From Thermoplasmatota archaeon (lineage in GTDB: Archaea > Thermoplasmatota > Penumbrarchaeia > Penumbrarchaeales > Penumbrarchaeaceae): 64,000 nucleotides of DNA. The stretch lies in assembly GCA_029762535.1 (NCBI GenBank), contig JARVGK010000006.1, positions 14,603-78,602 of the forward strand. Direction: 5' to 3'. Below the pieces are notes generated by a model. That model searched no databases, was not told the origin of the DNA, and saw only the letters and a program-made list of their open reading frames with translations. Shown here piece by piece: positions 29,441 to 42,580 of the stretch (position 1 is the first letter of the stretch; every line of letters starts with the position of its first letter). A program made the position numbers and the translations under genes.

Positions 29441-30593
29441 GAAGGGACAGGTCCTCGGCCACCCCGGATCTGACCATGTATCGGTTAATGAATATCCTGT
29501 TCTTGAGATAGACCAGATATCCCCCTCCCCCATGAGGCTTGAACATGACCTCCCTGCCGAGTATATGTTCGTTCAGATATGATATGGCCCTTTCTTCATG
29601 AAGGATACGGATCCCTCCAAGCTCCAGATCGTTCCCGTCCGAAAGCACAAGGGTTAATGGGTCCAGTATCTGCTCCACCTTGTTCAATTTATTTTTTTTG
29701 TATCGGTCCTTTTTAGAGGGTTCCATGTTGTTTATCGAGGGGAGGTATCCTTCATCGTAACATGGAATTGTGGAGGGAGGTCTCTCGAATATCGATACTT
29801 CCCCGCTGAGGAACCTGTCCTGACCCACTTTTTCCTTGATGATGGGGATATAGGTCATGTTCAATTCGTATCCCGTGCAGGACCTGTCAAGGTCCAGAGA
29901 GGCCTTCATCGTGGTCCCGCTGCCGAGGAATGGATCCAAAACCTCTTCCCCGACGAACGAGAACATGCGTATCAGCCTCCTCGGTAGTTCCTCGGGGAAC
30001 ACCGCCTCATGGTCCGCCTGTCTTGCGCCTTTGAACGTCCAATGCCCCGAGAAGTATTCCTTCCACTCCTCCTTGGATAGCTTGGACCCTTCCTTATCGA
30101 ACTTCTTCGGTCCTTCCTTGCCGGGTTTCTTGAATATCATTATATGTTCATGGTCCAGTTCGACGATGCCGTTCGGTGGATATGGGTACGAACCCATGAC
30201 CGGCGCGCCTCCAGTGGTGTTCAACGTGGTCCTCTTCTGCCATATTATGGATCCGATGAAATCGAATCCGAGCCTCTCGCATTGTATTATCATCTCGGCA
30301 TGGAGGGGCACCACCTTGTATCGCCCGTAATCCCTCGTGCGGGTGAACTGATCCCCTATGTTTATTACGAGCCTCCGACCCGGCACCAAGACTCTGAAGC
30401 ATTCCTCCCAGACGAGGTAGAGGTCCTTCAGGTACGTGTGAAGGTCCGATCCCCTGCCTATCTGGCCGTTTATCATGTAATCCTTGATGTCCCAGTAAGG
30501 GGGAGAGGTGATGATGAGATGTTTGGATCCCTCATCTATCTCGTTCATCTTCCTTGAATCGCCTATTATGAGCCTTCCCTTCATCCCGTCCAT
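29424..30593 (-). CDS. DNA methyltransferase (N4C/N6A, beta class) with C-terminal degenerate thermonuclease-like domain
   Basis: ITSPPY precedes VLDPFLGSGTT; HEAVFPEELPRRLI; tail ending YLVYLKNRIFINRYMVRSGVA. Confidence 0.88.
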   Translation of the reverse strand: MDGMKGRLIIGDSRKMNEIDEGSKHLIITSPPYWDIKDYMINGQIGRGSDLHTYLKDLYLVWEECFRVLVPGRRLVINIGDQFTRTRDYGRYKVVPLHAEMIIQCERLGFDFIGSIIWQKRTTLNTTGGAPVMGSYPYPPNGIVELDHEHIMIFKKPGKEGPKKFDKEGSKLSKEEWKEYFSGHWTFKGARQADHEAVFPEELPRRLIRMFSFVGEEVLDPFLGSGTTMKASLDLDRSCTGYELNMTYIPIIKEKVGQDRFLSGEVSIFERPPSTIPCYDEGYLPSINNMEPSKKDRYKKNKLNKVEQILDPLTLVLSDGNDLELGGIRILHEERAISYLNEHILGREVMFKPHGGGGYLVYLKNRIFINRYMVRSGVAEDLSLPKGRR

Positions 30594-30699: not shown

Positions 30700-32940
30700 C
30701 TATATCGAGTCAATAATGGCATTGTAGGTCTGGCTAGGCCTCATGGCCCTGGATGCCATATCGTCATCCGGCTTGTAGTAGCCGCCTATGTCCACGGGAT
30801 GTCCTTGGGCCGCGTTAAGCTCCTGCAATATCTTATCCTCGTTCCCCTCGAGCTGTTCTGCCACGGGTGTGAATATACTCTTCAGCTCGGGATCGTCATT
30901 CTGATCCGCAAGCTCCCTTGCCCAGAACATGGTCAGGTAGAAATGGCTGCCCCTGTTGTCTATCTCGTTGACGTCTCTACCGGGCGACCTATTGCTCTCG
31001 AGGAACCGACCGTTGGCCCTATCCAGGGTTTGGGACAGAACTCTAGCCTTTTCGTTCCCGGTCCTGTTGGCCAGGTGCTCGAGCGATGCCGATATGGCAA
31101 GGAACTCACCCAAAGAGTCCCATCTGAGATGACCCTCATTGAGGAACTGCTCGACGTGTTTGGGAGCGGAACCTCCCGCACCCGTCTCGAATAGACCTCC
31201 GCCGTTCATCAACGGCACGATCGAGAGCATCTTTGCGCTTGTGCCCACCTCTAGTATCGGGAAAAGGTCCGTGAGATAGTCCCTAAGGACGTTCCCAGTC
31301 ACGGAAATAGTGTCCTTTCCCTCCTTTATGTACTGGCATGAGAACCTGGTGGCCTCGTCCGGAGACATTATCCTTATATCGAGCCCTGTCAGATCGTATT
31401 CTTTCAGATATTCGTTCACTTTTTTGATCAATTCCGCATCGTGGGGCCTTTTCTCGTCAAGCCAGAACACGACAGGGAGCTTCGTATCGATGGCCCTGCC
31501 CACAGCTAATTTCACCCAGTCCTTGATCGCCGGGTCCTTGACCTCGCACATCCGGAAGATATCGCCCTTCTCCACATCCTGCTCCATCAGGACCTCGCCA
31601 GAGGAGGCGACTAGCCTCATCTTTCCGTCGCCTGGTGCCGAGAAGGTCTTATCATGGGACCCGTACTCCTCGGCCTTCTGGGCCATGAGGCCGACGTTCT
31701 GGACAGACCCCATGGACCTGGGGTCGAAAGCACCGTTCTGCCTGCAGAAATCGACGACGGCCCTGTACACCCCGGAATAGCTGCTGTCAGGGATCACGAA
31801 CTTTGCCTCTTTAAGTGTCCCATCCTTTCCGTACATCCTACCACCTGCCCTGATGGCTGCGGGCATGGAGGCATCGATTATGACATCGCTCGGGACGTGG
31901 AGATTGGTTAGGCCCTTATCCGAGTTCACCATGGCCAGCTCTGGACCTTTGGCATACACCGCCTCGATGTCCTTCACTATCTCCAACCTCTTCTCCTCAG
32001 GTAGCGATGCGATCTTTGTGTATAGGTCTCCTAGTCCGTTGTTGGGGTTGATCCCAAGCTCCTTGAATATCACTTCATGCTTCTCGAATACGTCTGCGAA
32101 GAAAACGGAGACAACGTGTCCGAATATAATAGGGTCGGACACCTTCATCATCGTCGCCTTCAGATGGATAGAGAACAGTACCCCCATCTCTTTAGAGTGC
32201 TCTATCTGCCCCCTTATGAAATCCCTGAGGGATCTCACGCTCATGTGAGATGTATCGACGATCTCCAGGGCAGGCAGCTTCATATTATCCTTGAGGACCT
32301 TGACATCGCCGTTATCTCCAGTATATTCTATCCTTGCCTCCATGTCCGAGTCTATCGTCAAAGACCTCTCGTTCGACCTGAGATCCCCGGATGCCATGCT
32401 GGATACATGCGCCCTGTTATCGGGTTTCCATTCAGCCATGGAATGCGGGTGCTTCCTCGCATAGTTCTTTACGGATGCCGGGGCTCTCCTATCTGAATTC
32501 CCTTCTCTCAGGACGGGATTGACCGCGCTGCCTTTTATCTTATCATAGACGGTCTTTATCGTCCTTTCCTCATCGTTCTTGGGTTCATCTGGATAATCCG
32601 GCAGGGCGTACCCTTTGCCCTGCAGCTCCTTTATCGTCGCTTTTAGCTGTGGTATCGACGCGCTTATACACGGGAGCTTGATAACGTTCGCTTCGGGCAT
32701 TTTGACAAGCTTCCCCAGCTCTTCCAGGTCATCGTTGATCCTCTTGTCCTCGCTCAGATGGTCGGGGAACTTGGCTATCGTCCTGCCGGAGAGCGATATG
32801 TCCCTGGTCTCCACCTTCACTCCCGCGGCTCCCGTGAACGCTTTGATCACGGGAAGCAGCGAATAGGTCGCAAGCGCCGGGGCCTCATCGACCCTGGTGT
32901 ATATTATCCTGTTTCCATCAATTCTCTCTTCGTTCGACAT
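30700..32940 (-). CDS. icd: Monomeric NADP-dependent isocitrate dehydrogenase
   Basis: [64 protein letters not shown]. Confidence 0.96.
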
Positions 32941-34570
32941 CCTTTTCCTCCTTTTCAGCGAATACCGCATCATCGTAGTATCTTGGTTCGACGTTCCTTA
33001 CCACATCTATGATGGTCCCGTCCCTGTATTCGATCAAAGCAACGATCTCATCTCCCCAGTTAGGTTCGACCTTGGTCTGGGTTATCTCGTAGGCCTGCCT
33101 TTGAAGGTCCTCTATGGTCGTTATCTTCATGTCCCGGGGTATCTTGACCGAAGCGAGCTTTTCAAGAAGGTCGATCCTTCGCGGGTTCATCGCTATGCCC
33201 CGCTCTGTCACGACGACGTCAATGTTCTCTCCAGGGGTCACCACGGTGTTGACCCTGTCGACCACGACCGGATACCTTCCTCTGAAAAGAGGGACGGTCA
33301 ATATCGTCAGGCTAGCTCCGGCCGCGGTGTCCGAGTGCCCTCCGACGGGCTCGGCTATGATGCCGTTGGACATCGTGACCGAATTAACGTTATAATCCAG
33401 ATCCACCTCGGTCGCGCCCAGGACGACTATGTCCAGCTTGTTGACGGTACATCCTCTCCCATGTATGTTGGCGTATGCTCCGATAGGCAGGTCAACGTGG
33501 ATCTTGGGGTTCTCCTTCATGTTATGTATGGCGGCCACATCGAATGCCTGGCCCGTGATGAGTTTCTTCACTGTCCCATCGAGGAGCATCTCGACAAGGA
33601 ATTTCGTGGTCCCGCCCTGGGCCCAGGCGGCCTTCACCCCCTTTTCCTTCATCCTCTGATGAAGGAATTCCGTGAAAGCAAGCGAGATCCCCCCGGCCCC
33701 CGCTTGAAAGCTCATCCCCTCCTTGACGTAACCCAATAGGTCCGCGATCCTCATCGCGTCCTTGGCTATCTTGAGCCTGGTGGGCGAGTTGGTTATCCTG
33801 AGTTCGCCTGAGGCGATCTTGTTCGGATCCCCTATCTTGTCCACGACGACCACGTAATCTACCAGCTCCTGGCCGATGGACATGGGGAAGTTGGGATATT
33901 CCACAAGATGGTCCGTCACTGCGATAACATGGTCGGCGAAGTGAGCATCGGCATAGGCGAAATTGATCGTACCGCAAGCTGATGGGCCGTTGATCGCGTT
34001 GAGATTTCCCAGTTCATCTGCGGATGGTGCTCCTATGAAGGCCACATCCACGTGTATGTCACCGGCCTCGATCGCCCGGACCCTTCCCCCATGGGACCGG
34101 ATCCTCATAGGTTGGTTGAGATATCTTCCTGAGCTTACGAGCCTCCCGAACTCGCCCCTTGCGGAACCGCCTTCGACCTTTTTGATCGTCCCGTTCATTA
34201 TACATCGGATTATTGCCTCCTCCTGGCAGGGGAATGTGGATGAGGGGGCAAGGATGAGGTCCTTTATTCCCTTCCTCTCGATCTCCGCAAGGACCATGTT
34301 CATCACATGGTCCCCGTTCCTGAAATGGTGGTGGAAGGATATGGTCATGCCGTCCTTCAACCCGATCTTTTCCATTGCCTCGCCAAGTGTTTTCACAACC
34401 TCGTTCTCCTCGGAGGCAACATATCCGAGCTTGGGTCCGTACTTATGGTCCTTGACCGGCCTGTGGGCGAAGGGACCTTTGTAAGGTATCAGCTCCACAC
34501 CATCGATGGACCTCGGGACCTTTCTACCCAGGGAGTTCTCCACCCACTCCACATCCGAGATCTTCACCAT
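32918..34570 (-). CDS. citF: Citrate lyase alpha subunit (citrate CoA/ACP transferase)
   Basis: [49 protein letters not shown]. Confidence 0.94.
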
Positions 34571-35514
34571 CAGTCATCGCCTCCACCGCTTTTTTTTGCC
34601 TTCTGCTGCATCATCTCCGTCACTTCCTCGGGAGATGGTATGTCAAGGTCCGCCATCTTGGCGATCTCGAGCACCCTCTCGGCCTTGAGCACTATTGGTC
34701 TGTCTATCATCTTCGCCCCTAGGGCGACCGCTCCTGAGCCCTTCTTTTTCGCTTCCTCGATAGCCATCTTCACCCTAACGGCGTAGAGGATCTGCTCTGG
34801 GGTTGGATCGAAAACCGAATGTATTATCTCGACCTGGCTGGGATGGATGCATGCCTTTCCATCGTAACCCATTGTCTTTATCATCTCGGTCTCCTTTCTC
34901 AAACCTTCGGGGTCGCCGAAATCAGAATAGACAGTATCTATTGCTTGTATCCCGGCGGCCTTGGCCGCGAGAAGTACCATCGACCTAGCCGTGTTTATCG
35001 CCGTTCCTGTGCTGGACCTCTCACCCCCGAGATCCGCTGTAAGGTCCTCTCCGCCTATGGTAAGCGCCTCGAGTCTTTTGGAGCATCTTGCGATATCATA
35101 TGCGTTGATGATGCCCTTTGCCGTCTCCAATGTCGCGAACAGCTTTATCCTGCCTATTGGGAGGCCTTTCTTCTCCTCCAGGTCGGTCACGATATCATCC
35201 ACCTGTATGACGTCCTCCCTGGACTCGACCTTCGGAATGTATATGCCGTGCAGTTTCTCCGAGACTATCTGTTTGATGTCCCATTTCCCGTAGGGCGTGC
35301 TCATCGGATTGATCCTCACGGTGACCTCGGTCGCTGGGCCGAAATCGATGACCTTCAATGCCTCGGAGACGAGCATCCTGGCATCGGTCTTGTATTCGAG
35401 GGGAACGGAGTCCTCAAGGTCTAATGATATTACATCGGCGCCGTATAGACCTGCTGGGGGTATCATCTTCGGGTTGTTCCCTGGGACGTATAGCCTGGAA
35501 CGTCTGAGCCTCAT
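34570..35514 (-). CDS. citE: Citrate lyase beta subunit (citryl-CoA/ACP lyase)
   Basis: RRSRLYVPGNNP, DLEDSV, VRINP, GGED, GKACIHPSQ, MIDRPI. Confidence 0.94.
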   Translation of the reverse strand: MRLRRSRLYVPGNNPKMIPPAGLYGADVISLDLEDSVPLEYKTDARMLVSEALKVIDFGPATEVTVRINPMSTPYGKWDIKQIVSEKLHGIYIPKVESREDVIQVDDIVTDLEEKKGLPIGRIKLFATLETAKGIINAYDIARCSKRLEALTIGGEDLTADLGGERSSTGTAINTARSMVLLAAKAAGIQAIDTVYSDFGDPEGLRKETEMIKTMGYDGKACIHPSQVEIIHSVFDPTPEQILYAVRVKMAIEEAKKKGSGAVALGAKMIDRPIVLKAERVLEIAKMADLDIPSPEEVTEMMQQKAKKSGGGDD

Positions 35515-35795
35515 TCAAAAGCGCCCCCTTTTATCGCAGCGGCCTTGGTGCGCGCCACTATGGTGAAGTTCAGAGGGCTCTTACCAGAGCTCCAAACGAT
35601 GGCGTCCTCTATGCCCATACCGTGAAGCGTATTATCAAAGATCCGGAAGACCTCATCCCTGAAGACATCTCGGGATTTCCCCACTATTTCTATCTTTATA
35701 CCAGTCCCGGGCTCTGCGGGCGAGAGCTTTACTATGCAGTCCTCTCTCTCCTCGGTGCCGGCCTGGGCCTCCCTTAGCAGCTTTCTTGCGGCCAT
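35511..35795 (-). CDS. citD: Citrate lyase acyl-carrier protein (gamma), atypical
   Basis: 94 aa immediately upstream of citE. AQAGTEERED aligns to AxAGTLESxD; C-terminal TIVAR. Confidence 0.8.
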   Translation of the reverse strand: MAARKLLREAQAGTEEREDCIVKLSPAEPGTGIKIEIVGKSRDVFRDEVFRIFDNTLHGMGIEDAIVWSSGKSPLNFTIVARTKAAAIKGGAFE

Positions 35796-35807
35796 GACAT
35801 CACAACC

Positions 35808-37730
35808 TCATGAAAGCTGGCTCTTGGTATAATTGAGGGTTCCGCCGAGCCTGATGGTCTCCAGCTCCCTATCGGAGAGATCGTGGACGAGCTTTATCTT
35901 CGATCCCTTGTTCACTACCTCAATGATCAACTCACCCTTGAGATCGCCCACTTCCAGCTTCAGCTGGTCACCCTTCTCTATCTTGTCGTAATCGGAAGGG
36001 TCATTGAAGGTCAAGGGTGGGATCCCGAAGTTAATTAGGTTCGCCCTGTGTATCCTTGCGAAGGACTTGACGATAACAGCTTTGACACCAAGGTATTTCG
36101 GTGCCAGTGCTGCGTGCTCTCTGGATGATCCCTGACCGTAATTGTCCCCGCCGATGACGAAACCACCTTTCTTCTCGAGCGCCCTCTGCGGGAAGGTGTT
36201 GTCCACCTGACTGAAGACGAATTCGGATATGGCCGGGACGTTGGACCTGAGAGGCAGGATCTTCGCTCCTGCGGGCATGATGTGGTCCGTCGTTATGTTG
36301 TCTCCGACCTTTATAAGGACCTCCCCATTAAGCTCCGGCGATAGCGGTTGGAAGTCCGGCAGCGGTTTTATGTTAGGACCTCTCAGGATCTCCACCTTTC
36401 CCGCCTCATCAGGGGGCAGCGGATACACTATTAAGCTGTCGTCGTAGTCGTAAACCTCAGGTTCATCGATCATGTGCATTTGACCGATCTCCCTCGGGTC
36501 CGCGAACTCTCCCTTTATCGCCGTATAGGCAGCTATCTCTGGGGAGACCAGATAGACCTGGGCATCCTTTGTACCTGACCGGCCTTCGAAGTTGCGGTTG
36601 AATGTCCTCACTGATATCGCTCCCGTGTTCGGAGCGAGACCCATTCCAATGCATGGTCCACAGGCGTTCTCGAGCATCCTGAAACCCGCTCCGACGATAT
36701 CCGCCAGCGCGCCGTTCTTGGTTATCATCTTCACAATGGCCCTCGATCCGGGGGATACGGTAGCGGATACATCCTGATGGACCTTCTTCCCCTTCATTAT
36801 CTGGGCGACAACCATAAGGTCCCTGTATGATGAATTCGTGCAGGAACCCACGCATACCTGGTCCACTTTCATACCCAGAAGCTCTTTGAGGGTGACCACC
36901 GCCCCTGGGGAATGAGGTTTTGCCACCATCGGCTCCAAGGATGAGAGGTCTATCTCCATGACCGTATCGTAAGCTGCGTCATCGTCAGCTTTCAGTTCGA
37001 TCCATTGGTCCTCCCTGCCCTGTGCCTTGAGGAACTGCCTGGTGATCTCGTCCGAGGGAAATATGGAGGTCGTGGCTCCCGTTTCCGTCCCCATATTTGT
37101 GATCGTGGCCCTGTCCGGGACGCTCAAACTCTTAATGCCTGGGCCGAAATACTCAAGTATGAATCCCCTGCCTCCCTTTACATCGAGCCTTCTTAGGACC
37201 TCGAGTATCACGTCCTTGCCGGATACCCAATCAGGAAGCTCACCCTTCAGATGGACCCCCATGATCTTCGGGTACTTCAGACCGAAGGCCCCACCTCCCA
37301 TGGATACTGCGACATCGAGACCGCCTGCACCTATGGCGAGGGATGCCACGCCACCAGCAGTTGGTGTGTGGGAGTCCGATCCGATCAGGGTCTTTCCCGG
37401 CCTTGCGAAGCGTTCGAGCATTACCTGATGGCAGATCCCGTTGCCGGCCTTGGACAGCGTAATGCCATATCTCCTCGCGATGGATTGGAGATACCTGTGA
37501 TCGTCAGCGTTCTTGAAATCGCTCTGCAGCGTGTTATGGTCTATGAATGATACGCTCAATTCGGTCTTTACCCGGTCAAGGCCCATTGCCTCGAACTGAA
37601 GGTATGCCATGGTCCCAGTAGCATCTTGGGTGAGCGTCTGGTCCATCTTGATCCCTATATCGGATCCTTTCTCTTCATCTCCTGATACGATATGTTCTCT
37701 GATGATCTTCTCCGAAAGGGTTAGTCCCAT
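35808..37730 (-). CDS. acn: Aconitate hydratase
   Basis: QDATGT, GICHQ, GSDSHT, GSCTNSS, CGPCIG, FNRNF, TTDHI, GSSREHAA. Confidence 0.95.
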   Translation of the reverse strand: MGLTLSEKIIREHIVSGDEEKGSDIGIKMDQTLTQDATGTMAYLQFEAMGLDRVKTELSVSFIDHNTLQSDFKNADDHRYLQSIARRYGITLSKAGNGICHQVMLERFARPGKTLIGSDSHTPTAGGVASLAIGAGGLDVAVSMGGGAFGLKYPKIMGVHLKGELPDWVSGKDVILEVLRRLDVKGGRGFILEYFGPGIKSLSVPDRATITNMGTETGATTSIFPSDEITRQFLKAQGREDQWIELKADDDAAYDTVMEIDLSSLEPMVAKPHSPGAVVTLKELLGMKVDQVCVGSCTNSSYRDLMVVAQIMKGKKVHQDVSATVSPGSRAIVKMITKNGALADIVGAGFRMLENACGPCIGMGLAPNTGAISVRTFNRNFEGRSGTKDAQVYLVSPEIAAYTAIKGEFADPREIGQMHMIDEPEVYDYDDSLIVYPLPPDEAGKVEILRGPNIKPLPDFQPLSPELNGEVLIKVGDNITTDHIMPAGAKILPLRSNVPAISEFVFSQVDNTFPQRALEKKGGFVIGGDNYGQGSSREHAALAPKYLGVKAVIVKSFARIHRANLINFGIPPLTFNDPSDYDKIEKGDQLKLEVGDLKGELIIEVVNKGSKIKLVHDLSDRELETIRLGGTLNYTKSQLS

Positions 37731-37749
37731 TTTATTCCTCCTTATCACC

Positions 37750-37907: not shown

Positions 37908-39062
37908 ATGAAGAACTTGAACGATGCTGAGAGAACGGCCCTGTTCGGTCTCGTGACATTTCCCGATCTCAACGACATGGACCTCTCACAACGTTTCTCA
38001 ATGAAGTATTCCACATTCGCCTCGGCCAAGAGTCGCGTGATCGCAAAGGGATTCGTCGATGAGTACTATCTGCCCGTATTCCCTAGGCTTGGCTTCGAGC
38101 TATTGGCGACCGTATATACGGATTTCAACCCTGCTGTGACTGTGGAGGAACGCGTCAAGAACACGATAAAGCATGTAGAGGTCTATCCCGAGATGGTTTT
38201 TTCCCTCGGAGAGTCACACAGGGGTTTCTCGATATCGATCGCTGAGAACGTCACCCGCGTCATGAGGATATCACTCGAGAGGATCAAGTTGTTCGCTGAG
38301 CTGAACCTTCTGGAGATCGAGCTTCCCACGGAGATAATGCTTCCGTTCGAACTCTCGAACATTCATAGGTACTTCAACCTCTCACCACTGATCAATCTTA
38401 CTTACTCCACCACGGGCAAGAGCGGGTCGGAGCTTTCCAAGGAATTCTCCATCCCCCGAAGCGATCTTCTTTTTGGGGATTCGATTATGCAGGTCAATCC
38501 TAAAAACGAAAGATCGCAAGAGGACGATCTCTCCAGGGTGGAAAAGGAGCTGATGTACTATATAGTGAAGTACCCTCAACTATCGGCGGCAAAGCTCGCG
38601 AACATCGCCCCCTATTCTAGGCATACGATATCAAAGGTGAGGGAGGACATGCTGTATCGGGGTCTTCTAACCAAGCAGGTCATTCCGAACCTCAATGTAC
38701 TAGGATATTCCATACTCTCCCTGTTCCATGCCCGGATCGATCCAAGCAAACCCATAGATCCATCGACATGCAACCGGAGAGAGATCCTCCAGGATGAGAC
38801 CGTGTTCCTTGTCAGTAGGCCGACCGAGCTTTTGATGCTCGCCGTTTACGAGGATTACGTACATTACAACAAAGGCATGGGTGCTTTCATCCAGTTCCTC
38901 AAGTCAGGGAACTACATAACCAAGATCCCGACGATAAGGAACCACTCCCTCAAAGAGGCGATCATGATCAAGAGGTTCCAGTACCATGAGCTCCTGAGAC
39001 AGAGGTTCTCGCTCAATATCAAAGATGGTCGAGATACCAATATCGATGATCATCTCTCGTGA
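37908..39062 (+). CDS. Transcriptional regulator with two tandem Lrp/AsnC-like wHTH modules
   Basis: Two similar units, LNDAE..P...LS......ST....KGFV....P....LGF and LSRVE..P...LA......HT....RGLL....P....LGY. Confidence 0.7.
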   Translation: MKNLNDAERTALFGLVTFPDLNDMDLSQRFSMKYSTFASAKSRVIAKGFVDEYYLPVFPRLGFELLATVYTDFNPAVTVEERVKNTIKHVEVYPEMVFSLGESHRGFSISIAENVTRVMRISLERIKLFAELNLLEIELPTEIMLPFELSNIHRYFNLSPLINLTYSTTGKSGSELSKEFSIPRSDLLFGDSIMQVNPKNERSQEDDLSRVEKELMYYIVKYPQLSAAKLANIAPYSRHTISKVREDMLYRGLLTKQVIPNLNVLGYSILSLFHARIDPSKPIDPSTCNRREILQDETVFLVSRPTELLMLAVYEDYVHYNKGMGAFIQFLKSGNYITKIPTIRNHSLKEAIMIKRFQYHELLRQRFSLNIKDGRDTNIDDHLS

Positions 39063-40100: not shown

Positions 40101-41354
40101 TCACCTCTTCTTGCGGGCCTTGATCTCGACGCTCGGGCTGAGATCGACAACGCTCTGACCCCTTACCAGGTCGTCGGGTATGGGCTTCTCCTTCTCGGAT
40201 ACGAGATCTGGAAAGAGGGTGTTCAATTTCTTTGTTTCGAAGGGGCCCGAACGTAACAGCTTCGGAGGGTCCGTGCTCATATCGAGCACCGTATGGCCTA
40301 TGCCGTAATGGGTAGGCCCTCCATCAACGGCTATTGTCACGGTTTCCCCCAGTTGCTTGAGCGCCTCCTGCATTGTAGAGGGTGGAGGCTGCCCATGGAT
40401 GTTCGCAGAAGTGCCACATATCTCTATCCTCTCCATCACCGCTTTCATGAAGATGTTCTCACCGTCGGCTAGAGAGACGGTCTTCAGATTGGATGTAACA
40501 TAGTCGGGCACCCGTTCCTTCTTCTTTATGAATATAATGGATATCGGCCCGTCCAATTCGTTCTCCAGCAATGCCATGGTTCTGTCATCGATCTTCGCGT
40601 AATCCGTGAAACGGCTTCTCGGGACTATCATGGTCAGAGGCATGTCCTCTCCGCGTTTCTTCATCGCGTAGATCCTCTTGATGGCCTCCGGACGTTTTAT
40701 TGAGGCGAAAAGCCCATAGGTTGTATCGAAGGGACCTAAAAGGACCTCCCCTCGATTCAACATCTCGACCACGGTATCGACATATTTTTCCTTTGCCGGA
40801 AATATCTTCACCTTTTCAACCTCCTTCATTCTATCATTGTCCTTGAAAGGTCTGCTCATCTCCGATATACCGCCCTTCTCTATAAGAAGGGGAAATAGTC
40901 CGCCTTTTTCGATAATATCCATTATGAAACCTTGAAGCGGGGGCAGCGGCGAATCCCAACCCTTGGTGATATTATGTAACCTGTTATCCTCTATCAGGAC
41001 GCTGTCACCGTCAGAGCAAGCATCGGGAAGGTCGGGGTCCTCGTAAAGCGGTATGCCGAGATTTATCAGGTTCCTCTTCATTATAGGGGCTATTGACTTG
41101 GCAATGACCGCTTTTATTCCCAGGAACCTCATGGCGTTTGAGGCATGCTCTCTTGAGGACCCCTTGCCGAAGTCCTCACCGGCGACGATCACATCGCCTT
41201 CTCTGACCCCGGAGGCGAACCCAGGATAATCCTGCTCAAGGCAATGAAGGGAATAATCCTCCTGTGGAAGATGCAGATACCTCGTAGGGGCCAGCGCATC
41301 GGTATCGATATTATCCCCCAAAAGCCATATCCTTCCCTTTGCGATCTGTTTCAA
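40101..41354 (-). CDS. Fusion: LeuD/HacB isomerase small subunit + YrdC/Sua5(TsaC)-like domain
   Basis: aa 1-160 carry NIDTD, FGKGSSREHA, RNLINLG, GGL; aa ~176-390 carry PFDTTYGL, KKR, TSAN, DGG, LRSG. Confidence 0.85.
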   Translation of the reverse strand: MKQIAKGRIWLLGDNIDTDALAPTRYLHLPQEDYSLHCLEQDYPGFASGVREGDVIVAGEDFGKGSSREHASNAMRFLGIKAVIAKSIAPIMKRNLINLGIPLYEDPDLPDACSDGDSVLIEDNRLHNITKGWDSPLPPLQGFIMDIIEKGGLFPLLIEKGGISEMSRPFKDNDRMKEVEKVKIFPAKEKYVDTVVEMLNRGEVLLGPFDTTYGLFASIKRPEAIKRIYAMKKRGEDMPLTMIVPRSRFTDYAKIDDRTMALLENELDGPISIIFIKKKERVPDYVTSNLKTVSLADGENIFMKAVMERIEICGTSANIHGQPPPSTMQEALKQLGETVTIAVDGGPTHYGIGHTVLDMSTDPPKLLRSGPFETKKLNTLFPDLVSEKEKPIPDDLVRGQSVVDLSPSVEIKARKKR

Positions 41355-42580
41355 GGCACCACCTCTGAAGGATGGGCTATAACGCCTTTTAGCGCGGATG
41401 CCGCCGCGACGGCGACACCGCTTAGGTATATCTTGCTCGTGGGATCTCCCATTCTACCCTTGAAGTTTCGATTGGTGGTAGAGATCGCCACCTCTCCTGC
41501 GGGGAGGACTCCGAGGAAACCTCCTGCACAAGGGCCACAAGTAGGCATCGATATTATCCCCCCAGCATCCATAATGGTCTTAACGTATCCCGCCCTGGCC
41601 GCCCGGGTGTATACCGATCTCGACCCGGGAACGACGAGCATCTTGACCTCTGGGTGGATCTTCTTTCCCTTCAGGATGTCCGCCAGGACCCTGAGATCGT
41701 CCATTCTTCCATTTGTGCATGAGCCAATGAAGACCTGATCTATCCTCTTTCCGGTATGATTGTAGACATCGTCCACTCGATCCGGGGAACCTGGCAAGGA
41801 TATCTGAGGTCCTCTGTCGGTCACATCGATATGCTCGGTCTCCCAGTCCCAATCCTTCGATCCTGGCCCTTCATCATCGCTTTCGTTCGTCAGCGCTGAT
41901 ATACAATCTATCTCCGATGCCATATTGGTGAGTGTCATCCTGGAATCGTTTCCGATCCAATTCAATATATCCCCCTTCATCTCGAGCGTTCTGCCGTTCG
42001 CCCCGCCCGGTCCGAGGTGCTTGATCATCATAAGCGCCAGGTCCTTTCCCTCGCACCATACGTCCGGGGTACCCTCGAAGTATATGCCAAGGGGTTTAGG
42101 AACCTGCAGCCAGAACTCCCCGGAGGCCATGGCGACGGCCAGGTCCGTGGACCCTATGGCCGTGCAGAACGCACCCAAAGCACCTCCGGTCGTTATATGG
42201 GAATCGGCGCCTATGACGAGATCACCCTTCTTGACCCGATCCCCCTCGAAGAGATGCACGTGACATATGCCCTCGCCCCATCCGATCAGGTTCGCTATTC
42301 CGTGACGGGATGAGAATTCTGTCATGGCCCGGCAGCTTTCGGCTGATTCAAGGTCCTTCGGCGGAGTGAAATGGTCCAGATAAAGGTATATCTTCTTGGC
42401 CGCCCTTAGATACGGGACACCTTTGGAGTCCAACATCCTCATCGCAGGTGGGGTTGTAACATCATGTCCCATTATATGGTCCGGGAAGAAAACACCGTAA
42501 TCCCCCGGGACGAGATCCCCTTCGATCATATGATCTGAGAGTATGGACAACGCCAATGAACCAAGTACATCCCCGTTCAT
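41351..42580 (-). CDS. leuC: 3-isopropylmalate/homoaconitate isomerase large subunit (LeuC/HacA)
   Basis: GICH, GADSH, GSCTNGR, CGPCAGG, NRNFKGRMG. Confidence 0.88.
   Translation of the reverse strand: MNGDVLGSLALSILSDHMIEGDLVPGDYGVFFPDHIMGHDVTTPPAMRMLDSKGVPYLRAAKKIYLYLDHFTPPKDLESAESCRAMTEFSSRHGIANLIGWGEGICHVHLFEGDRVKKGDLVIGADSHITTGGALGAFCTAIGSTDLAVAMASGEFWLQVPKPLGIYFEGTPDVWCEGKDLALMMIKHLGPGGANGRTLEMKGDILNWIGNDSRMTLTNMASEIDCISALTNESDDEGPGSKDWDWETEHIDVTDRGPQISLPGSPDRVDDVYNHTGKRIDQVFIGSCTNGRMDDLRVLADILKGKKIHPEVKMLVVPGSRSVYTRAARAGYVKTIMDAGGIISMPTCGPCAGGFLGVLPAGEVAISTTNRNFKGRMGDPTSKIYLSGVAVAAASALKGVIAHPSEVVP

Follow-up and report, generated by a model that had tools for sequence, protein, structure and literature searches.

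In the present study we examined citD', a small gene in a 64,000-nucleotide stretch of DNA (the window) from a Thermoplasmatota archaeon of the class Penumbrarchaeia (contig JARVGK010000006.1 of assembly GCA_029762535.1). Its product, CitD', is a homologue of the gamma subunit of citrate lyase and lacks the serine to which the prosthetic group, 2'-(5''-phosphoribosyl)-3'-dephospho-CoA, is attached. Citrate lyase is a textbook enzyme with a covalent dephospho-coenzyme A (dephospho-CoA) arm, and it needs CitG, CitX and CitC. The gene and its two altered motifs lie at the following positions of the window:

35511..35795, minus strand: citD', encoding a 94-residue CitD/MdcC-family gamma-subunit homologue without the prosthetic-group serine (Pfam and TIGR profiles and alignment)
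35745..35747, minus strand: AGA codon of Arg17, aligned with Ser14 of E. coli CitD (profile alignment); orthologues have AGG, AGA, CGT, CGG or AAA
35568..35585, minus strand: GKSPLN, residues 71-76, a family-specific replacement of DKGALD (alignment)

The N-terminal part of the product reads MAARKLLREAQAGTEEREDC / MAARKLLREAQAGTEEREDCIVK (translation of open reading frame (ORF) 35511-35795 (-), 94 residues). CitD' matches PF06857 with 41.6 bits (cut-off 25.1), and its score against the citD profile TIGR01608, 50.1 bits, is under the equivalog cut-off of 63.5. The E. coli K-12 genes citCDEFXG served as the reference set. Comparison of CitD' with E. coli CitD using hhalign gave a probability of 76% over 80 columns. 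When a profile of 52 close homologues was aligned with E. coli K-12 CitD, AGTLESGD was placed under AGTEERED without a gap, so R17 corresponds to Ser14; in the same alignment SSGKSPLN was placed over VDDKGALD. The codon and the alignment thus bear out the initial annotation, which had placed Arg17 (AGA, 35747-35745) within AGTEERED where CitD has serine and had reported the change of DKGALD to GKSPLN. By homology and by its place directly upstream of citE and citF the gene is a citD, while the carrier serine and the loader genes were not found.

The loader genes were sought by profile. No match to CitG/MdcB (PF01874), CitX (PF03802), MdcG (PF10620) or CitC (TIGR00124) was obtained in the window's genome, which is 93% complete and consists of 102 contigs. 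In this search E. coli was positive for CitG, CitX and CitC, and no control genome scored above the MdcG cut-off. CitX was found in none of the 61 other CitD'-bearing Thermoplasmatota genomes and CitG in two of them, on contigs other than that of citD'. This is the pattern that had been predicted if loss of the serine goes together with absence of citG and citX. The two CitG-family matches (L070, G003:C21; L071, G015:C54) come from genomes in neither of which CitX was found. Judged from its sequence, CitD' cannot receive the prosthetic group at its usual position; the arginine there and the missing CitX, CitG, MdcG and CitC support the same claim in the initial annotation.

We then considered the gene in its relatives. 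Arginine or lysine occupies the site in all 52 close homologues, which are 69-86% identical to CitD', and E18, D19 and C20 are invariant among them. In 19 distinct genes of the family the codon at the site is AGG (7), AGA (6), CGT (3), CGG (1) or AAA (2). A single sequencing error, against which the initial annotation had already argued, does not account for five codons in 19 genes. Median pairwise dN/dS is 0.09 for citD' and 0.06 for citE and citF, values that are rough because dS is saturated. Identity of CitD' among family members is 71-86%, matching that of aconitase, CitE, CitF and isocitrate dehydrogenase. Purifying selection on citD' is about as strong as on citE and citF, and CitD' therefore persists as a working subunit, as had been proposed from the single sequence.

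In order to place CitD' among its relatives, 1.84 billion cluster representatives were searched with a profile. Among the 248 relatives found, the best 150 were taken, and 149 of these have a residue at the site: Ser in 89, Lys or Arg (K/R) in 51 and another residue in nine, 60 being Ser-less. The 89 Ser-type representatives agree with the canonical motifs as quoted in the initial annotation, the first having the percentages A89 G100 T70 L69 E91 S100 x D100 and the second D97 K51/R32 G96 A94 L94 D76. On a tree of 139 of the best 150 representatives, with the site column masked, the residue at the site changes state eight times, compared with about 40 times with shuffled labels, and one split (SH-aLRT 89) holds 45 of the 51 K/R proteins together with two Ser proteins. 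The window's CitD' is on the K/R side of this main split. As few state changes and one split account for the distribution, the Ser-less form is mainly one old subfamily and not the result of scattered decay; on this tree nearly all K/R proteins belong to a single ancient clade. The names in the subfamily are those of Deltaproteobacteria, Bacteroidota, Bacillota and Thermoplasmata metagenome-assembled genomes, and the usual annotation of the proteins is citrate lyase acyl carrier protein (ACP).

Our Thermoplasmatota sample comprised 401 genomes, 62 of them with a PF06857 match, and yielded 67 domains from 61 genomes besides the window's own. None of the 67 CitD-like domains has Ser at the site, which answers the question whether orthologues keep the serine, and 56 have K/R there. 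Within one residue of the site K/R is found in 67/67 of these domains versus 1/89 Ser-type representatives. The Lys/Arg-type subfamily therefore holds every CitD-like domain sampled in the phylum. As far as the tree and motifs tell, CitD' is not a local oddity; it is part of a large, old Lys/Arg-type CitD subfamily. G13, D19 and R82 show little or no variation in Ser-type and K/R-type proteins alike, which argues that the loop is still constrained. CitD' has all three as well as the R17 of the subfamily; the DKGALD-like motif is not retained in it. Most K/R-type representatives keep that motif (D82 G74 A90 L72 D72 %), so GKSPLN is special to the window's family. In the sister family f2 the corresponding motif is E[KR][TS]PLD, the S/T-P-L-D form, and the window's family is accordingly a derived branch of the K/R subfamily.

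An AlphaFold2 model of CitD' (mean pLDDT 84.6) has the order beta-beta-beta-alpha-beta-alpha, and its first two long strands (10-12 and 20-26) are joined by the loop that contains R17. Foldseek and VIA ranked EF-G domain IV and the ribosomal protein S5 C-terminal domain highest among the structures similar to this model (Z about 10, root mean square deviation 2-3 Å, 74-94 residues aligned). This predicted beta-alpha fold is common and, as modelled, uninformative on the function of CitD'. No CitD or MdcC structure was among the Foldseek and VIA match lists for the model, and no PDB relative of CitD' was found by sequence, with either the single protein or a profile. We also predicted a complex of CitF(40-550), CitE, CitD' and CoA, for which a control with CitF replaced scored almost equally high.

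The gene is the second of an operon on the minus strand, whose other members and divergent neighbor are:

35808..37748, minus strand: acn, aconitate hydratase, which opens the operon and ends 12 nt before citD' (NF005558, 968.7 bits)
34570..35514, minus strand: citE, CitE-like citryl-CoA lyase (beta) subunit (PF03328, 216 bits; TIGR01588, 321.9 bits)
32918..34570, minus strand: citF, citrate CoA-transferase (alpha) subunit (TIGR01584, 586.9 bits, cut-off 501.45)
30700..32973, minus strand: idh, monomeric NADP-isocitrate dehydrogenase, last gene of the operon (TIGR00178, 1239 bits)
37908..39062, plus strand: putative regulator, divergent from acn (weak TrmB match below cut-off)

The start of citE overlaps the stop of citD' by 4 nt (ATGA), and citE and citF overlap by 1 nt. 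CitF is above the citF equivalog cut-off and shares 41% of 485 aligned residues with E. coli CitF. For CitE the identity with its E. coli counterpart is 38% across 287 aligned residues; its TIGR01588 alignment covers positions 1-286 of 288 with a score that is under the cut-off of 443.4. The name CitE-like citryl-CoA lyase suits the CitE of the window best. The row of regulator and acn-citD'-citE-citF is present in 10/10 family genomes examined, with idh after citF in 7/10. The divergent regulator is beside acn in sister family f2 as well, and acn-citD'EF is also found in families f2, f10 and f43, so that four families of the phylum have it.

In many other Thermoplasmatota lineages CitD' is fused to the N-terminus of CitE in ORFs of about 375-383 residues. 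Some genomes (G357, G258, G291, G369 and G207) have both a CitD'-CitE fusion and a separate acn-citD'EF. Two of the fusions, L086 (G357:C1) and L087 (G072:C12), are of the K/R or E-R type, the open frame in G357 being 440 residues long, and no gene for CitF or aconitase lies within about 10 kb of them. Among bacteria, an Arg-type citD'-citE-citF follows tctC-tctB-tctA and a gene for a sigma-54 PrpR-like regulator on a Deltaproteobacteria-type contig (L115 and L116, ENA metagenome); no citC, citX or citG is within 8 kb of it.

We also surveyed citrate metabolism in the host genomes. The class, formerly EX4484-6, was renamed Ca. Penumbrarchaeia in a 2025 paper, which places a reverse tricarboxylic acid (TCA) cycle gene set based on ATP-citrate lyase (ACL) in the core genome and mentions ACL as the sole citrate lyase (PMC12220078). 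In the window's genome AclA has 613 residues and AclB is cut by the contig end (L001, G000:C5:1-3093). In several relatives an ACL match is 4-11 kb from citD' on the same contig, several of those in the set G065:C3, G030:C6, G119:C5, G047:C29, G190:C22 and G008:C15 being at 4-7 kb. A PF00285 search found no canonical citrate synthase in the 18 family f1 genomes or the window's genome. The PF00285 matches in 16 of the 18 and in the window's genome are partial (positions about 157-355) and lie within AclA-sized frames of about 615-644 residues, some of which are cut by contig ends; the two f1 genomes without a PF00285 match are incomplete. The window's genome also encodes a second CitF of 548 residues (L095:1276-2922 (+), G000:C58; PF04223, 477 bits), 41% identical to the operon CitF. 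It lies between ksgA, for a KsgA-type rRNA dimethylase, and a TPR protein gene. As no PF06857 gene or CitE adjoins it, this orphan CitF must work on free CoA esters.

With a probability of roughly 0.55, we believe that CitD' is a working non-carrier gamma subunit of a prosthetic-group-free CitE/CitF citrate lyase that uses free acetyl-CoA. Acetyl-CoA would be the free catalytic cofactor of CitD'EF. In the step catalysed by CitF, citrate would receive CoA from acetyl-CoA, with acetate and citryl-CoA as products, and CitE would cleave citryl-CoA to oxaloacetate and acetyl-CoA, which is thereby regenerated; the net reaction would be citrate to acetate and oxaloacetate. Such a cycle on free CoA, with acetyl-CoA regenerated, would not need CitC, CitG or CitX. 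Isolated subunits of citrate lyase reportedly take acetyl-CoA and citryl-CoA instead of the acyl-ACP forms (Dimroth and co-workers). Co-transcription with aconitase and monomeric isocitrate dehydrogenase would link 2-oxoglutarate, isocitrate and citrate to oxaloacetate and acetate.

In the proposed enzyme CitD' would remain in the complex, where the loop G13...[K/R]17.D19 would put a positive charge at the position of the former phosphodiester. The loop would dock on the partner subunits. It may also touch one of the phosphates of free CoA, such as the 3'-phosphate missing from the covalent dephospho-CoA arm. The selection on the gene, the conservation of the loop and the CitE fusions make it clear that CitD' has not become dispensable, and the near-universal basic residue suggests either a salt bridge to a partner subunit or a hold on a phosphate of free CoA. 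We infer the use of free CoA, the direction of cleavage and the role of Arg17 from sequence. The reading of the enzyme as a citrate lyase is supported by CitF, which passes its equivalog cut-off, and by the nearly full-length alignment of CitE and CitF to the E. coli proteins. Conservation of acn-citD'EF(-idh) and the tctCBA neighbors point to a context in which citrate is the substrate. The operon could provide a catabolic, ATP-independent branch beside the anabolic ACL in a peptide-degrading anaerobe.

Several points weigh against this assignment, which rests entirely on sequence. CitE scores below its equivalog cut-off (321.9 versus 443.4 bits), and its substrate could therefore differ. The family genomes also encode ACL, often beside the operon, so a second citrate-cleaving enzyme needs a reason. 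A purely structural role of CitD' fits the data equally well. Finally, S41, S69 and S73 are conserved in the window's family and a phosphopantetheinyl transferase (PPTase) is encoded in the genome, which makes covalent modification elsewhere in the protein formally possible.

The structural role in its plainest form, in which CitD' serves only for assembly or as a scaffold in a citrate lyase that runs on free CoA and Arg17 forms a protein-protein salt bridge without touching CoA, is in our estimate a rather unlikely alternative. A fixed module at the N-terminus of CitE fits better with the fusions of about 375-383 residues than a mobile carrier does, and the conservation of G13, D19 and R82 whatever the type is in keeping with it. 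On the other hand, Lys or Arg at the site or beside it in 67/67 domains versus 1/89 of the Ser type is a very specific demand for a scaffold, although a salt bridge to a partner would explain the basic residue too.

It is unlikely that the enzyme does not cleave citrate in vivo, and instead either runs in the synthetic direction in place of citrate synthase (acetyl-CoA + oxaloacetate to citryl-CoA to citrate) or acts on another CoA donor, CoA acceptor or hydroxy-acid. Such a role would suit genomes in which no canonical citrate synthase was found (f1 and the window's own) and in which ACL already provides citrate cleavage; moreover, the CoA donor is no longer fixed once the covalent acetyl arm is gone, and the CitE score leaves room for it. 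The CitF score above the equivalog cut-off speaks against this reading, as does the unfavourable formation of citrate from acetate and oxaloacetate at physiological concentrations. Family f36 genomes have a full-length citrate synthase together with citD'EF, and the two are therefore not simple alternatives.

A CoA donor other than acetyl-CoA, such as succinyl-CoA, with the Lys/Arg loop clamping CoA non-covalently, would make CitD'EF a third, CoA-transferase route of the reductive TCA cycle, and we regard this as improbable. If it were true, citrate would be converted to oxaloacetate with a net gain of acetyl-CoA and no ATP spent at the cleavage step, and the reverse reaction would make citrate with the thioester conserved. 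The reductive TCA cycle could then be closed or opened in a third way, besides ACL and the citryl-CoA synthetase/citryl-CoA lyase (CCS/CCL) pair.

Even less probable is a covalent thiol arm elsewhere on CitD', either 4'-phosphopantetheine attached to S41, S69 or S73 by a PPTase or an acyl group on Cys20. All four residues are invariant or nearly so within the window's family, and a PF01648 PPTase domain is present in the window's genome and in 16/18 family genomes. Across the K/R subfamily, however, column 41 is mostly V, column 69 is V/I/A, column 73 is G and column 20 is V/C/I. Cys20 was rejected as an acyl carrier, as its column is V/C/I/A in both types, as for a buried strand residue. For the most part the PPTase forms the C-terminal domain in a PfaA-like polyketide/polyunsaturated fatty acid (PUFA) megasynthase with four ACP domains of its own, and it is found in only 1/43 CitD'-bearing genomes of other families, a set that includes f2 (0/2), which has the same acn-citD'EF operon. 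Phosphopantetheinylation by the genome's PPTase was judged unlikely on these grounds.

The possibility that Arg17 is a sequencing or assembly error, AGA being one base from the Ser codons AGC and AGT, or that citD' is a decaying pseudogene is refuted by the K/R residue in 52 homologues, by five R/K codons, CGT and CGG included, in 19 distinct genes, and by an intact open frame with dN/dS of 0.09 and translational coupling to citE.

Compared with CitDEF of Klebsiella pneumoniae and E. coli (EC 4.1.3.6), the enzyme has the same three subunit families in the order citD-citE-citF, and CitD' has the same CitD fold family with the G...D loop kept. It differs in having Arg for Ser14 and GKSPLN for DKGALD, in its archaeal host and in that no CitX, CitG or CitC was found in the window's genome. 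The operon partners are aconitase and monomeric isocitrate dehydrogenase, whereas those of the K. pneumoniae/E. coli type are a citrate transporter and oxaloacetate decarboxylase. MdcC, the delta subunit and ACP of malonate decarboxylase, belongs to PF06857 like CitD'. However, a serine of MdcC bears the prosthetic group, and MdcC depends on MdcB and MdcG. Neither of these two was found in the window's genome, and the neighbors of citD' are citE and citF.

CitD' also resembles the Lys/Arg-type CitDs, free-standing or fused to CitE, of uncultured bacteria and of Ignavibacterium album (IALB_1146/1147), which have a basic residue for the serine, adjacent citE and citF and unlinked loader genes. 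The window's CitD' differs from these in being unfused and archaeal, in its GKSPLN motif and in its place in acn-citD'EF-idh, often beside ACL genes. In the I. album genome paper the fused CitE-CitD with its neighbor CitF is taken for a normal ATP-independent citrate lyase, and a role in the reverse TCA cycle is offered as speculation; the missing serine goes unmentioned (PMC3362086). CCS/CCL of Hydrogenobacter and the citryl-CoA lyase domain of ACL convert free citryl-CoA to acetyl-CoA and oxaloacetate, as we propose for CitE. In those systems citryl-CoA is made by an ATP-dependent synthetase, while here it would be made by CoA transfer by CitF, and the lyase is a citrate-synthase-like domain there and a CitE of the HpcH/HpaI type here.

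A search of the literature, limited to open-access papers, found no description of a Ser-less CitD. The window adds an archaeal branch that is universal in the phylum sample, the GKSPLN motif as a derived form and the acn-citD'EF-idh operon, often beside ACL. If the lack of the serine and of the loader genes holds up, a large set of genes that bear the annotation 'citrate lyase ACP' encodes non-carriers whose enzymes probably work on free CoA. The scoring of ATP-independent citrate cleavage in metabolic reconstructions would change, for instance where reductive or branched TCA cycles or the fermentation of amino acids are assigned to Ca. Penumbrarchaeia and other uncultured archaea of sediments. 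Pathway engineering would gain a simpler citrate lyase of three genes, and the subfamily would be a natural experiment in which a covalent cofactor arm was replaced by a basic residue.

Some other genes drew our attention. The PPTase domain of the window's genome ends a 3308-residue PfaA-like megasynthase, KS-AT-4xACP-KR-DH followed by the PPTase (L114:819-10745 (+), G000:C17), after which comes an ORF of >1700 residues. Similar giant ORFs with a PPTase domain occur in most genomes of the window's family, and a PUFA/polyketide-type synthase is unusual in an archaeon. In the window, idh is followed by a DNA methylase gene (29424-30593) and not by ACL. A 417-residue ORF at 40101-41354 (-), directly downstream of an aconitase-family large-subunit gene at 41351-42580 (-), combines an Aconitase_C segment like the LeuD small subunit (residues 55-101) with a Sua5/YciO/YrdC domain (residues 197-370), and represents an unusual fusion unless the ORF call extends too far.

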